Made by a program: the position numbers. This document shows, one piece after another, positions 24,601 to 30,600 of a stretch of DNA of 64,000 bases. The DNA comes from Candidatus Eremiobacteria bacterium. GTDB lineage: Bacteria > Vulcanimicrobiota > Vulcanimicrobiia > Vulcanimicrobiales > Vulcanimicrobiaceae. The first letter of the stretch is position 1, and every line of letters starts with the position of its first letter. Location of the stretch: NCBI GenBank assembly GCA_963758295.1, contig CAVWUU010000004.1:1024001-1088000 (forward strand), written 5' to 3'.

Positions 24601-27600
24601 AACATGCGGTACGGCCTGCACGCGCAACAACGCGCGTTCGTCGAATCCCGTTCCGCCGGCGAAGACTTGAAGATTCACGTGGTTGGCAATAACGTCGATG
24701 CTTCGCGCAAAGGAATCGACTGCGGTAGCATTCGCGAGATCGATGGAATACGACGCCGAGACGCCGAGCGCCACGGCAAACAGCGTGACCAGCGCTCGCA
24801 ACGCATTAGCTCGCGCGTAGCCGACAACGAGCGCGCGCACCAGCAGCGCGCGTTCGCTCATGTCTGCGCTTCGATGCGGCCGTCTCGCATTTGCACGCGC
24901 CGGTCGGCGCGTGCAGCCGCGTCCCCGCTATGGGTCGCCATCAGAATCGCCTGGCCCCGATCGGCCAGATCGCGAAGGATTTCCAGCACGTTTTCGCCGT
25001 TTCGCGTGTCTAAATTACCCGTCGGTTCGTCGGCAAGCAGAATCGCCGGCTCGTGCACGATGGCGCGAGCGATTGCGGCGCGTTGCAACTGGCCGCCGGA
25101 AATTTGCGATGGGAGCGCGTCCGCTTTGTCCGCGATTCCAACGGCTTCGAGCACCGACTCGACGCGCGTTTGTATTTCGCGGACCGGCCGGCGCTGTAAC
25201 ACCAGCGGCAGCGCAACGTTTTCGCGCACGCAAAGGGTTGGAAGCAAATTGAAAAACTGAAAGATCGTGCCGATACGGTTGCGCCGCAATGCCGTTAGAT
25301 CGTTGTCGTTCAACGCCGACGTTGCAACGCCGTCGATTTCAACGGAGCCCGCATCGGGCAGATCGATGCAGCCAATGAGATTGAGCAAGGTACTCTTTCC
25401 GCAGCCGCTCGGGCCAAGCAGCGCCACGAGTTCGCCCATGCCGACCTCCAGGTCGATCCCGTCCAGGGCGCGCACGCCGTTTTGGTACGTTTTTACGACC
25501 GCCGAACAAAAAACGGGCCGTCGCGTTCCGGCGACAACCCGTTTTGAATTTTCGGTTGCGTTGATGCGCGTCGAACTCAGGCCGACGCCTTCTTGAAATA
25601 CTCCGCGTTGATTTCGATGAAGTTCGTCCACTTTTCCGGAATATCCGAGTCCGCAAAAATTGCCTCTACCGGACAAGCCGATACGCAGGCTCCGCAGTCG
25701 ATGCAGACTTCAGGGTCAATGTAAAGCTGGTCGTCTTCATCTTTCCCGTGAATGCAATCGACGGGACAAACGTCAACGCAAGACTTGTCCTTCGTTCCGA
25801 CGCACGGTTCGGTGATGATATAGGCCATGAGCTTTGAGACCCCTTAGACGGTGTTGAGTGTCGTAAACTTCGAGCGTGCTATTAGCAATGCTCCAAGCCT
25901 ACGCCTTCCCGCCGAAGGGGTCTCCGACTATTGTCTAGCCAGTCGTCGGGTCGTTAAGCTACTGTACGACGTCCCGCTACAGCGCGGACGATCCATAGCA
26001 ATACGACCGCGCCGATCACTGCGCAGATAAAGCTGCCGATGTTGAATCCGGTTACACCAACGTGACCGAACATGCCATACAGCCAGCCACCGAGCACTGC
26101 GCCGATGATGCCGACGATTAGGTCGCCCAAAACTCCCCCAGGCCCCTCGCCCGGAACGATCCACCGAGCGATCGCGCCGACGATGATACCGAAGATTATC
26201 CAGAGTAAAATGCCCATCGCTATCCTCCTGGCCTCAACATTGCCCCAGGAGTTCCCTCCTTAAACGGAAGTCGCCGGGAGAGGCGTCCAGGCAGGGCACG
26301 AACGCTGGACGGCGGACGTTTACCGCTATATGAAACGATTGCTGGCCCTGCTCGGCATGCTCGTTCTTGCGACAGGCGTGCCCTCTGCCGCTTTGGCGGC
26401 AACCACGCAAATTGCCGTAAGCGGCACGGGCACGGTGACTTTGATGCCCGACGAAGCGACGGTCAACGGCGCAATAACGACTACCGATCCGAACGCCGAA
26501 ACGGCAACGTCGCGAAACAACGCGTTGTACGAGAAAGCCGTGAACGCCGTTACAGCGCGCGGCATCGCCCGCAGCGATATCACGCTCTCGTACTACAACA
26601 TGAACTATCAGCCGAAGCCTGATTTTAGTCCGGGACCAATACCACCGGGAATCCCAGCGCCTTCCTATGGCTACACGGTCACTCGTTCTTTTGCCGTGAA
26701 AGTGCGCAATGTTGCGAAGGCCGGCTCGATCGTCGACGCATTAGCGCCCACAGCCGGCATCGACATCAACGGCGTTTCCTTTGGCCTGGCAGATCCGTCT
26801 GCTGCACGCAAGACGGCTACGGCCAAAGCGGTCGCCGATGCCCGCGAAAAGGCCATGGCGGTGGCCGCCGCGGCCGGATTGCATGTTACGGCCGTTCAAC
26901 GAATCGATCTAGAAGGCGCTTTCGCGCCTGGACCGGCCCCCCTTATGCGCATGAACGCCGAGGCGGCAACCGCAAAGGTCCCGACGACGTTCGATACGGG
27001 CAACGTGAACGTAACCGTCAGCGTGAACGTCGTCTACTCGGCAATTCCATAAAGGACGAAACTGCTGCGGCCCTCGACGGGTAGAGAAACCACATGACGA
27101 CGACTTGTGAGGTCTGCCGGATCCGCGACGCTACGGTCTTCAACGGCCGCACCTCGCTTTGCACCGCATGCGCGCAGCGCCGCTCGGCAACGAGCGCTCT
27201 TCCGTTCCTTGGCGCGGCACTCGCCGCGGCGGGACTGATTGCGGGCGGCGCCCTGATCTACGAGAACCGCGATGAACTTTCACGCAAACTAGGCGCGACT
27301 GGAACGCCTACATTGCAGAACTTCTCGCGCGACCTCACCGATCTCGCGAGGAACGGCAAACTCGATCCCGTCGTCGGCCGCGACGAAGAAATCGAACGCG
27401 TCGTTTCAATTCTCGCGCGGCGCAGCAAGAACAATCCGGTTCTTGTGGGCGAACCCGGCGTCGGAAAAACCGCCATCGTAGAAGGCCTCGCGCAACGCAT
27501 CATCGCCGGCAACGTGCCTGCAACGCTTCGGAACAAACGTGTGCTTTCGCTTACCCTTGGGCCGCTCGTGGCCGGCACCAAATATCGCGGCGAATTCGAA

Positions 27601-30600
27601 AGCCGCGTCAAACGCATTCTCGACGAAGTTAAGCGCAGTGCGCGCGACGTAGTGCTGTTCATCGACGAGTTACACACGCTCGTCGGTGCCGGTGCGGCTG
27701 AAGGATCGCTCGATTTGAGCTCTATGATCAAGCCGGAACTTGCGCGCGGCGAGCTGCAGTGCATCGGCGCAACGACGTTCGACGAATACCGAAAGTACAT
27801 CGAGTCCGATGCGGCGTTGGAACGCCGCTTCCAACCGGTGATGGTCGACGAGCCGTCGATCGAACAAACCATCGCCATTTTACGCGGCCTCAAAGACGGC
27901 TACGCACGCCACCATCAGGTGATAATCGAAGATTCGGCGCTTGAAGCGGCTGCATCGCTGTCCGCGCGATACATCGCGGATCGTTTCTTGCCCGACAAAG
28001 CCATCGACCTGATGGATGAAGCCGCCGCTTCGGTCGCGTTGCTCGGAAAGGGCATTTCGTCGTATCCCGCCGTGCGCGCTCAAGACGTGGCGGCCGTAGT
28101 CACCAAATGGACCGGCATTCCGCAATCGACGCTCTCCGAATCGCAAGCCAATCAATTGCTTTCGCTTGATGACACCCTTTCGAAACGCGTCATCGGCCAG
28201 CGTCGCGCGATCGAATCGGTAGCGCAGGCCATTCGGCGCGCGCGCGCCGGATTGCACGACCCGCGCAAACCGCTTGGAAGTTTTCTTTTTGCCGGTCCAA
28301 GCGGCGTCGGAAAGACCGAACTAGCCAAAGCGCTCGCAGAATCGCTGTTCGGCAGTGAAACCGCGCTCGTACGGATCGACCTTTCTGAATTTACCGAAGC
28401 GCACACGGTTTCGCGCCTGCTCGGCGCACCTCCGGGATATCAGGGTCACGACGAACCCGGACAGTTAACGGAACCCGTGCGCCGGCGTCCGTACTGCGTA
28501 GTGCTTTTCGACGAACTGGAAAAGGCGCATCCCGACGTCGCAGCGATCTTACTGCAAATCTTGGACGACGGCCGCGTTACCGATGCCAAAGGTCGAACCG
28601 TCGACTTCCGCCATGCACTGATCGTCCTCACGACGAATCTTCCCGAGGACGAAATTGCGCTCGAATTGCGTCCCGAGCTCATCAACCGCATCGACGACAC
28701 CGTGCATTTCAACACGCTGCAGTTGCCGCAGATCGAGGCGATCGTCGAAATCCACGTCGATGCGCTAGCCGAACGGCTCGGCGCCCGCAACGTGCAACTC
28801 CGCCTATCGGACGAGGCGAAGCAATACCTCGCAAAGGTCTCAATGGGCGCGGGCAGCGGCGCGCGCTACGTCGGCCGCACCGTTTCCCACTACGTCAGCA
28901 CGCCGCTTTCCACCGCAATTCTGCGCGGCGAGCTCAAAGACGGCGGCACCGCCGACGTCACCCTCCAGGGCGACTCTCTCGTCATCAACGCCGCTTAACG
29001 CGCGATAAAGCCGCGTTGCCACGTCACAAACCAGCGCTACGAGCGCCTCTAACGGTTAAGTACGAAAGGGGTGAGGCGATGTTTGCAACGTTGGTGCTGG
29101 CGGCTGCCGTGGCTTCGGAGACGCAGTTCTTCGATGATTTGCATGGGTCGTGGAACTGCGGCGGGGTAACGTGGACGATCGCGAAAGCTCCCGGCGATAG
29201 CGCTTGGACGACGGTGACATACGGTAAGGGTGATTCCATCGGTGGCACTGCGTACGTCGGCTGGATTCCACAACTGGAGCGCTACGTCTACCGCGACTTC
29301 CACAACGACGGCCCAATCGCCGAGCTCTCTTCTCCCGCTCCTACAAATGCCATGTGGACTTGGACCGGCAGTTACTATCCGTCCGACGGGCCCGTCGATA
29401 CTTCCGCGCACATCACATGGACGTACCAATCGCCGAACACGCTCGTGCGTCACTTCGGCAAAGTCACCGACGGCAAATACACTGAGATGGGCTCCGACCG
29501 GTGCACTCGGTCTTCTTCAAGCTGACGCTCAGCGATTGCTATGGATGGCCCGTCAACCTCAGATTATCGAAGGACGGGCGCATGGCAACACCGCTCGATA
29601 CAAGCTTTTGCCTATTATGACGACGACGATTGCATGCGCCTGTCCTTCGACAAGCTCAGGATGACGATCGCTGGGGCTTTCGTCAGATGACGATCGCTGC
29701 GGCTTTCGTCAGATGACGATCGCTGGGGCTTTCGTCAGATGACGATCGCTGCGCGGCTTTCGTCAGATGACGATCGCTGGGGCTTTCGTCAGATGGCGAT
29801 CGTTAAAGAATAGCCTTGACGTCGGCTTCCATGTCCGAGCGGGAGAGTTCGCCGATGGCGATTTTACGTACGATGCCCTTGCGGTCGATGAAGACGTGGA
29901 CGGGTAAGCCGTTGATGTTGTAAGCGTCGCGCAACGTGCCCTCGTCGACGACGGCGGGATAGCTTAAGTGATGTTGAGACATAAAGGAGGCCGCTTTGGC
30001 GGAGTTTTCCAAAACATCAACGCCGACGACTTGCAAACCGCGAGACCCGTATTTTTGTTGAAGCTTGTCTACGTCGGGCGCTTCTTCGTTGCACGGCGGA
30101 CACCAGGAAGCGAAGAAGTTTAGATACACGGCCTTGCCGTGCAACGACTCCATTGATAACGTCGTGCCGGTCGCGGTAGGCTCCTGGAAATTCGGCGCCG
30201 GTTCACCAACGGCAGCGACCTTTGGGGCCGGCGCGTCGGTCGAGCTAGCGGAGCTATTGCCGCCGCCGCTATGGCAGGCAGCCAGCCCAAGCGCGGCAAG
30301 AAGAAACGCCGTATTTCGTGCGATCATGCGTAACTGGGATACGCCACGGCGTGGAGATCGGTTTGCATTTGAGAAACGAATTCGTCCAAAGAAGCAAAGA
30401 CCCGCTGTTCGCGCACGTAGCGAAGGTCGCGCAAGGCGATTTCATGCCCGTAGATCGTGGAATGGAAATCGCGAATCCAAGCCTCTAAGGTGCGTTTCTC
30501 CCCGTTGAATTGCGGATTCGTTCCGATGGAGAGCAATGCGGCGTAGTCGCGGCCGTCGTAGCGCGCAACGGCGGAGTACACGCCGTCTTTCGGAAGCAAT

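Follow-up and report, generated by a model that had tools for sequence, protein, structure and literature searches.

A third two-ring Clp ATPase of the Vulcanimicrobiales with a Cys4 finger and a membrane-like hydrophobic segment

A minimal two-ring Clp in one order and its sister lineage

Can a bacterial Clp/Hsp100 motor be held at the membrane by its own N-terminus? The question is raised by one gene in the window, that is, the 64,000-nucleotide stretch of a Candidatus Eremiobacteria genome analyzed here. The survey's finding was of a membrane-anchored, ClpE-like ATPase kept across the order Vulcanimicrobiales as a third conserved two-ring Clp besides ClpB and ClpC. That it is such a third Clp is borne out by the ORF, the motor motifs, and a separate clade.

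27094..28998, + strand: gene for the two-ring Clp/Hsp100 ATPase P0001 (634 aa), from ORF and family/domain searches
27310..28122, + strand: AAA1 ring, with Walker A, KYRG pore loop, Walker B, and arginine fingers; its lid runs straight into AAA2
28126..28995, + strand: AAA2 ring and small domain, with GYxGH pore loop and no IGF/LGF loop

The genome (82% complete) has one copy of this gene alongside clpB and clpC. Our orthologue set (n = 73) comprises 69 loci from the order, a non-random sample made up of the 30 best matches and 39 chosen for diversity, and four from a sister lineage; locus L041, an assembly chimera, was left out. Identity to the query over the AAA core is 59%–93%, close to the 64%–95% given earlier. 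The N-terminal module is present in 166 of 168 order genomes and in 16 of 32 sister-lineage genomes, so that conservation across the order stands but the protein is not limited to it; its range extends into the sister lineage.

The features of class I Clp/Hsp100 proteins (two AAA+ modules, Walker A and B, arginine fingers, and aromatic pore loops) are all found. The key residues of AAA1 are invariant (69/69), as are pore Tyr449, Arg532, and Arg591 of AAA2, where the Walker B Glu is kept in 68/69 and the sensor-1 Asn in 63/69. In the sister lineage the AAA2 Walker B reads DD in three of four loci and in 7/7 further proteins among the matches listed, and the second ring may therefore be weak there. 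There is no M-domain. The genome's ClpC has a sensor-1 loop longer by 33 residues, which includes the DIGF motif missing here; among the 73 orthologues this loop measures 15 residues in 67 and 19 in four, and was unparsed in two. Both absences reported before, of M-domain and ClpP-docking IGF loop, are thus seen against that ClpC. The analysis supports a protease-independent third Clp unfoldase with a membrane-like helix, its activity being predicted from sequence. Six subunits would form a double AAA+ ring whose tyrosine pore loops, with motifs intact, would thread and unfold proteins; lacking the M-domain it would escape both DnaK gating and M-domain storage states, and lacking the IGF loop it would not dock to ClpP. 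A naturally minimal Hsp100 of this kind, in nearly all genomes of the order beside ClpB and ClpC, offers a chance to test how a motor without its usual brake is restrained and targeted.

Relation to known Clp families

In trees the ATPase forms its own clade (99/99), apart from ClpB and ClpC; these trees contained no ClpE or ClpI sequences, and nearness to ClpE was judged solely by score ranks, in which the motor gives 677 bits for ClpC, 652 for ClpB, and 530 for ClpE. The likeness to ClpE lies in the Cys4 finger, its 22-residue spacer (30/73 orthologues), and the hydrophobic segment and linker that follow into AAA1. ClpE, however, is defined by a coiled-coil M-domain and partnership with ClpP (partial text of PMC13125188), both lacking here, and "ClpE-like" is apt for the finger only, the motor being closer to ClpC and ClpB.

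The protein and ClpG/ClpK both start with a zinc finger from one family, both have two AAA rings, and both lack an IGF loop (ClpK sequence L095), but the protein has no N2 domain, M-domain, or C-terminal extension, and its post-finger segment is uncharged and far more hydrophobic. It reaches 644 bits with the ClpG/ClpK family model (cut-off 1900) and falls apart from ClpK in trees. Identity to the genome's own ClpB and ClpC is ~68% in AAA1 and 56%–61% in AAA2, with a shared fold; what is missing is the Clp-repeat N-domain, the M-domain, and the DIGF loop, the clade is separate, and the NCBIfam ClpB score (841 bits) is below the cut-off of 1232. ClpA likewise has no M-domain, but it does have a Clp-repeat N-domain and a ClpP-docking loop (sequence L093), and our protein scores below the ClpA cut-off. 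ClpIb of Actinomycetota is also a lineage-specific third two-ring Clp without an LGF motif beside ClpB and ClpC, but it retains an M-domain of ClpC length; the available portion of its description mentions no transmembrane segment (PMC10149685). Descent from the phylum's other M-less Clps was rejected, as those fall into a separate group in the trees.

A Cys4 finger followed by an uncharged hydrophobic segment

27106..27195, + strand: Cys4 zinc finger of McsA/ClpE/ClpG-N1 type, residues 5–34, with a shortened hairpin
27196..27264, + strand: uncharged Gly/Ala-rich hydrophobic segment, residues 35–56, closed by acidic residue 57
27265..27309, + strand: variable linker, 12–37 residues among orthologues, with a short basic helix at its end

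The query carries CxxC-x14-CxxC at residues 5–26; its spacer of 14 becomes 22 in 30 of the 73 orthologues, as in ClpE. The four Cys of what had been described as a CxxC-CxxC zinc ribbon are present in 73/73 and invariant in 55/55 sequences, but the modeled fold (pLDDT 82–88) is a beta-hairpin plus helix, which we take to be a finger of treble-clef type and no ribbon. Profile matches include McsA (8wtb, E 2.7e-4), ClpE (29hb, E 0.074), and ClpK N1 (probability 69%, E 4.5e-5), and at the profile level the finger can be classed as homologous to McsA and ClpG N1. By analogy with the proteins described in PMC13125188 and PMC10641755 (both in part), it would bind zinc. Structure was less informative: the finger fold search gave a weak ClpG match (8p66, Z 2.8, rmsd 5.0), N-domain fold searches peaked at Z 3.6 with none over background, Foldseek returned 0 matches at E <= 0.001, and residues 1–75 drew no usable match from the ESM Atlas. 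Pfam on 55 N-domains gave no consistently recurring family, and the complex prediction for two N-domains plus zinc scored 0.00, giving no verdict. In ClpG, V17 and L21 of the finger bind aggregates (accessible text of PMC10641755). Neither is retained here: by our own alignment, the V17 position is Asp in 45/73 orthologues and the L21 position Arg/Lys in 26/30 with the long hairpin.

Behind the four Cys, every orthologue (73/73) has an uncharged run of 19–30 residues. The best 19-residue Kyte-Doolittle window is at residues 38–56 in the query (mean 1.93) and ranges from 1.61 to 2.35 (median 2.08) across the 73, with no charge inside; the values first reported ahead of AAA1 were 1.7–2.3. The pattern is of fixed length, with Pro in 59/73, Gly40 in 68/73, Gly51 in 71/73, and a closing Asp/Glu in 72/73; mean identity is 0.65 in the segment vs 0.50 in the finger and 0.40 in the linker. 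The hydrophobic moment is modest (median 0.43). The segment, low-confidence and unpacked in structure models, is presumably helical.

Is it hydrophobic enough for a membrane? On an approximate insertion-energy scale (our own weighting) its median is +0.63; among 2492 crudely called proteins of the genome, the membrane mode peaks at about -0.5 to 0 and the soluble mode at about +6, which puts the segment on the border of the former and well away from the latter. The segment would seem fit to enter a bilayer and marginal for a full span. Other N-domains are much less hydrophobic (ClpK N1 0.37, ClpL -0.54, three zinc-finger Clps 0.51–0.90). The genome's soluble ClpP, however, has a window of 1.98 within a 23-residue uncharged run, and hydropathy alone thus leaves insertion unproven. 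Lys+Arg counts are higher on the N side in 27 orthologues, equal in 16, and lower in 30; they give no orientation and hence leave room for a true membrane span. In net charge the N side exceeds the C side in 61/73. A cleavable Sec or Tat export signal is unlikely, as judged by motif: twin-arginine-like RRx-hydrophobic-hydrophobic occurs in just 3/73, and small-x-small before the acidic boundary in 5/73.

Two further ideas about the segment were dropped. Kinship to the genome's YtxH-like helix was rejected (probability 0.6%), and targeting to lipid droplets or PHA granules is unsupported, with WS/DGAT (searched without a positive control) and PhaC unmatched in the 82%-complete genome.

Promoter motif and neighboring genes

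25577..25828, - strand: divergent 4Fe-4S ferredoxin gene, the steadiest neighbor in the order (69/69 loci)
26330..27052, + strand: SIMPL (DUF541) gene (PF04402, E 5e-43), with a signal-peptide-like N-terminus
27058..27083, + strand: predicted alternative-sigma (ECF-type) promoter, GAAAC (27058–27062), 17-nt spacer, GGTA (27080–27083)

The GGTA ends 10 nt before the ATG, a distance from which we infer a nearly leaderless transcript. In its strict form the motif occurs in 52 of 69 orthologous upstream regions vs 9 of 2760 random windows, and in a loose form (G[A/C/G]AAC-N16-18-NGTA) in 56/69 vs 30/3989. The loose form also precedes hslV in 23/30 genomes and matches at a SigH-like gene in 6/30; the motif stands before clpB in 6/30 genomes and before SIMPL in 0/26. 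A SigW-like ECF gene carries a CGTA variant in 25/28 genomes, and the Clp gene GGTA/AGTA in 55/56. Exact matches genome-wide number 108 vs 91–101 in shuffles, an absence of enrichment that implies a small regulon. No sigma-70 site or terminator excess was found near the Clp gene, CIRCE, CtsR, and HAIR gave 0 matches in the whole genome (strict patterns, a weak test), and at the nucleotide level the promoter region matched only itself. Being common to hslV but not SIMPL, the motif points to a probable role in cytoplasmic protein quality control, and from it the contours of a small stress regulon emerge in a little-studied soil phylum. Substrates released by the ATPase might refold or be broken down by proteases other than ClpP, the co-regulated HslVU being the simplest candidate.

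SIMPL lies directly upstream in 52/69 order loci. The neighborhood seen before (197/352) is thus recovered, though not its ratio, as the samples differ. An obligatory link does not survive: SIMPL is missing there in 17/69, has no tblastn match at 4/4 sister-lineage loci, and lacks the motif that the Clp gene has for itself. Some coupling exists, the SIMPL stop overlapping the Clp start in two family-f2 loci and lying 2 nt from it in L067. SIMPL is thus a frequent but dispensable neighbor, less constant than the ferredoxin gene. A thioredoxin-like lipoprotein gene is also frequent within the order, and no neighboring gene hints at a membrane substrate. The genome also has a rhomboid gene and FtsH.

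Where the hydrophobic helix may sit

Membrane anchoring as first proposed is plausible given a membrane-like uncharged segment in 73/73, but a simple single span is doubtful because either the zinc finger or the ATPase would then have to lie beyond the cytoplasm. Compared with a membrane-spanning helix, we favor a soluble one or an anchor in one leaflet (monotopic). Our best explanation, which we put at a little under an even chance, is an Hsp100 unfoldase that is regulated by stress, works alone, and is held against the inner membrane from the cytoplasmic side; a membrane tether as such is predicted at about even chances. Since the helix is flanked by two parts that need the cytoplasm, the finger and the ATPase, it would most likely dip into one leaflet, or pack there with neighboring helices, with both ends inside. 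The job might, speculatively, be to extract or remodel misfolded proteins bound to or next to the membrane. If the tether is real, bacteria own a membrane-side unfoldase distinct from FtsH.

Msp1/ATAD1, FtsH, torsinA, Skd3, and spastin M1 are AAA motors with an N-terminal hydrophobic segment; none is a two-ring bacterial Clp, and they serve as working analogies only. Spastin M1 is an AAA ATPase with a predicted transmembrane stretch and both termini cytoplasmic (partial text of PMC4395272); the basic residue within its hairpin is missing from our helix. This precedent stands on the side of a tether, together with the kept motor motifs, the invariable uncharged run, the far lower hydrophobicity of other zinc-finger and stand-alone Clp N-domains, the loss of ClpG V17/L21, the improbable export signal, and the motif common to hslV. 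On the other side, the helix is more conserved than the finger, as expected for a protein-binding surface, and the segment right behind the ClpE finger is an aggregate-binding element (F52/F54, just past the finger; PMC13125188, in part).

These last observations lead to a rival that we consider possible though rather improbable: a soluble stand-alone disaggregase, in which the helix, sitting where ClpE has its Phe-rich segment and ClpG the helix behind its finger, captures substrate or packs with itself, six copies binding aggregates by avidity. The domain order is that of the ClpE and ClpG N-domains (PMC13125188, PMC10641755; both in part), and the architecture resembles a fusion in which the ClpG finger, set on an M-domain-derepressed ClpB without its N-domain, yields a stand-alone disaggregase (same portion of PMC10641755). 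The marginal insertion energy, the strong conservation of the helix, and the motif common to cytoplasmic hslV all suit it. Known substrate-binding segments, however, are either charged or rich in aromatic residues, and much less hydrophobic; an uncharged run of 22–26 residues in fixed register is odd for an exposed soluble element; the models offer the helix no domain for packing; and ClpG V17 and L21 are not retained. Were it soluble, the protein would join ClpG and ClpL among the stand-alone disaggregases and bring a new targeting element.

A single pass with the N-terminus outside, in which a periplasmic Cys4 finger senses redox state, metal, or misfolding above a Gly-zipper helix bundle and the ATPase stays inside, strikes us as unlikely. 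Length and a small-residue face (positions 40, 44, 47, 51) do suit a packing transmembrane helix, the N-tail is short (27–47 residues), the N side is free of Lys/Arg in two sister-lineage loci, which have three of these residues on the C side, and the genes for SIMPL and the thioredoxin-like lipoprotein are often neighbors of the Clp gene in the order. Yet the N-tail is net positive (median +3), with the N side the more positive in 61/73, RR follows the finger in 48/73, and in 72/73 the helix ends at an acidic residue on what would be the inner side. Basic, folded N-tails are generally poorly exported. The positive-inside rule is set out in a review, and the homologous fingers bind zinc within cytoplasmic proteins.

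The opposite orientation, an N-in signal anchor that would export the rings to work with SIMPL in the periplasm, we regard as scarcely credible. An N-in/C-out orientation would suit the basic residues ahead of the helix and the acidic one behind it, and SIMPL is adjacent, but the ATP-site residues are invariant, SIMPL is missing upstream in 17/69 loci, and the promoter motif is common to hslV. The periplasm is also not known as a source of ATP.

The preferred tether at the cytoplasmic face has a more far-reaching version, which we think rather unlikely: a bacterial membrane dislocase whose two-ring Hsp100 motor would hang on one helix, need neither DnaK nor ClpP, and be co-induced with HslVU. 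In the manner of Msp1/Cdc48 in eukaryotes, it might extract damaged or wrongly inserted proteins from the membrane to the cytoplasm, where they would be degraded. In the boldest form of this idea the helix crosses the bilayer and the periplasm is sensed by the Cys4 finger.

Finally, the helix might be an auto-inhibitory plug or removable pro-segment, a brake in place of the M-domain that is freed by zinc loss or cleavage; we hold this to be quite improbable. Skd3/PARL offers a parallel, a rhomboid gene is present, and a motor without an M-domain needs some control. ClpG gains ATPase and disaggregation activity when the helix behind its finger is deleted (PMC10641755), and on zinc loss ClpE threads its own N-domain (PMC13125188). 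Against this, the monomer model has no contact between helix and ring, linker length varies (12–37 residues), and no cleavage motif was found. A plug or pro-segment would be compatible with the other readings.

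Domain Architecture and Motor

The gene and two of its neighbours lie in the window as follows.

25577–25828, minus strand, ferredoxin gene, divergent
26330–27052, plus strand, SIMPL (DUF541) gene, directly upstream of the Clp gene
27094–28998, plus strand, Clp ATPase ORF, 634 residues

A Pfam search of the Clp protein finds two AAA modules, and the NCBIfam ranking returns ClpB, ClpA, ClpV, ClpG and ClpK, with every score below the family cut-off. ClpC and ClpB are also encoded in the genome, which upholds the survey's finding of a third Clp beside them. We compared 73 orthologues: 69 loci of the order (30 best matches and 39 chosen for diversity, with L041, described below, left out) and four of the sister lineage f3. 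Both totals include L005, from genome G130 (marked unpublished), which has a row in one of the two trees. Across the 69 order loci, the Walker A lysine, KYRG pore loop, Walker B and arginine fingers of AAA1 are invariant, as are the pore tyrosine, arginine finger and sensor-2 arginine of AAA2; 68 loci keep the Walker B glutamate of that ring and 63 its sensor-1 asparagine. The AAA2 Walker B of f3 is usually DD. Conservation of these motor residues suggests that threading is probably intact. The claimed lack of an M-domain and IGF loop also stands: comparison of the order loci finds no M-domain, and the loop that bears DIGF in ClpC of the same genome is shorter here by 33 residues (15 residues in 67/73 orthologues). 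Gating by DnaK and docking to ClpP would therefore be impossible by known routes, given the roles that PMC10641755 and PMC10149685 assign to these elements.

Distribution and Phylogeny

Proteins similar to the N-terminus are attributed to Baltobacteraceae, Aquilonibacter, Tumulicola and Eremiobacteraeota, and the genome is assigned to this group accordingly. The N-domain profile matches 163/165 genomes of family f1 and 3/3 of f2, the two families of the order, and 16/32 of f3, where genomes without a match are confined to four genera; these tallies include G100, G130, G147, G226, G244, G254, G262 and G264, all marked unpublished. In the phylum's other classes (69 genomes), the best 150 matches listed all lack the finger. 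A profile search across 1.84 billion representatives yielded 45 matches; judged by eye, the finger-plus-helix proteins among them all belong to the studied family and the remainder are cysteine-repeat proteins. Among the matches listed (77 frames parsed from 79 genome loci), two have finger and helix, both from Eremiobacterota. The family forms one clade (support 99/99), branching f3, then f2, then f1, and lies outside ClpB (100/100) and ClpC (91/94); the second tree agrees.

Other M-less Clps, from other classes of the phylum (L077–L089), have a long N-domain of ordinary type, mostly lack a recognisable IGF loop, and form their own group in the trees. Clp ATPases of ~600 aa on Lactobacillus plasmids (L094, L097) have almost no N-domain and no M-domain. 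In L041 (G119:C64, first 2.2 kb), the first ~225 residues look like ClpB of Alphaproteobacteria and the rest like the studied family; the switch falls near Walker A at the contig start and the true N-domain is on another contig, so that L041 is most likely an assembly chimera.

The Zinc Finger and Family Identity

The four finger cysteines are invariant among orthologues. Their spacer is 14 residues in 34/73 and 22 in 30/73, the longer form occurring in all three families and equalling the C6-to-C29 spacer of ClpE (PMC13125188). The N-domain profile matches McsA (E 2.7e-4) and ClpE (E 0.074), and aligns to ClpK N1 at 69% probability; its top match is a yeast RSC8 fusion construct, and several unrelated fingers score similarly. 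In the structure model the finger is a hairpin plus helix (pLDDT 82–88). In ClpG, V17 and L21 are the residues that bind aggregates (PMC10641755); in the studied family the V17 position is mostly Asp (45/73) and the L21 position Arg or Lys in 26/30 long-spacer forms, and short-spacer forms have lost the tip of the hairpin. By their defining features, the protein is not ClpE, ClpG, ClpB, ClpA or ClpI, and the ClpE-like label fits only the finger. Its mode of action would be that of a stand-alone unfoldase, fitted with a new N-terminal module.

Clps of other groups (L256, L257, L254) carry the same finger before an ordinary N-domain or straight on AAA1; the hydrophobic helix is absent from all three.

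The Predicted Hydrophobic Helix and Its Topology

The proposed anatomy, a Cys motif and hydrophobic window before AAA1, is confirmed and unusual: in 73/73 orthologues the finger is followed by an uncharged run of 19–30 residues (best window 1.61–2.35), with a fixed register of Pro, Gly40, Gly/Ala47 and Gly51, closed by an acidic residue in 72/73. An open-access-weighted literature search for membrane-anchored Clp/Hsp100 proteins led to a passage on ClpP, a broader one listed unrelated titles, and one for Eremiobacterota, Clp and chaperone found no literature, most subscription papers lying outside the search.

The studied protein's hydropathy of 1.93 is reached by 15% of 2,492 crudely called proteins of the same genome and falls in the valley between their soluble and membrane modes; an approximate insertion energy places the helix on the margin of the membrane mode. 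Hydropathy is −0.54 to 0.90 in the N-domains of ClpK, ClpL and three zinc-finger Clps of other groups. Soluble ClpP also attains 1.98, which counts against reading hydropathy as membrane insertion. Residues 35–71 are unattached in the AlphaFold model (pLDDT under 50); folded alone, they reach 53–66.

We tentatively favour an anchor in one leaflet. A single span would place the finger and the ATPase on opposite sides of the membrane, although each belongs in the cytoplasm, and the higher net charge on the N-side of the helix (61/73 orthologues) would direct the ATPase outwards; the Lys+Arg count is higher on the N-side in 27, equal in 16 and lower in 30. An N-out membrane span we consider improbable. 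Cleavage and twin-arginine motifs are rare among the 73 orthologues, also in favour of the one-leaflet anchor, and the predicted transmembrane stretch of spastin M1, with both ends cytoplasmic, offers a precedent (PMC4395272). A soluble substrate-binding element seems rather unlikely; its best argument is the Phe pair that directly follows the ClpE finger (PMC13125188). Judged from sequence, membrane association of some kind is on balance the somewhat likelier case.

Promoter-Like Motif

The motif GAAAC-N16/17-RGTA, which the survey does not mention, lies 9–21 nt before the start in 52/69 loci, versus 9/2,760 random windows (looser form, 56/69 versus 30/3,989), and is absent from all five f2 loci. 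Compared with consensus sequences, the predicted promoter would be ECF-type. The genome's second-best site precedes hslV, and the loose motif stands before hslV in 23/30 genomes, before clpB in 6/30 and before SIMPL in 0/26 parsed; this pattern would tie the gene to cytoplasmic proteolysis.

The hslVU promoter motif (L117, L160–L189) is kept in 23/30 genomes, and many clpB genes combine a retained TGCAAC box with another type of downstream box. A SigW-like ECF sigma gene (L103, L130–L157) has GAAAC-N16-18-CGTA upstream in 25/28 genomes, often with TGTTTC further upstream to give an inverted pair, and is probably autoregulated. One cluster (L126/L101, G000:C1:236563-238938) holds DUF948, YtxH-like, anti-anti-sigma-like, anti-sigma-like and SigB/SigF-like genes, the middle two named by resemblance, and resembles the Gram-positive general stress module.

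Neighboring Genes

SIMPL adjacency, noted in the survey, holds as a frequent arrangement (upstream in 52/69 order loci, the frames abutting in a few lineages) and fails as an obligate one. Since SIMPL is missing upstream in the remaining order loci and in f3 the Clp gene has another location, following a Nudix gene, SIMPL is a member of an order-level gene block and not an obligate partner. The ferredoxin gene is present at 69/69 order loci.

Elsewhere in the window, ABC ATPase, permease and CrtC/lipocalin-like genes stand in a row at 21200–25676 (minus strand), the permease seemingly split into 22852–24861 and 22299–22832 by a possible frameshift. The IF2 gene (33841–36688, minus strand) appears as overlapping frames 35840–36688 and 33841–36033, possibly through a frameshift or sequencing error. 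Near a sister-lineage locus, a rubrerythrin-VIT1 fusion is encoded at L073:9-1256.
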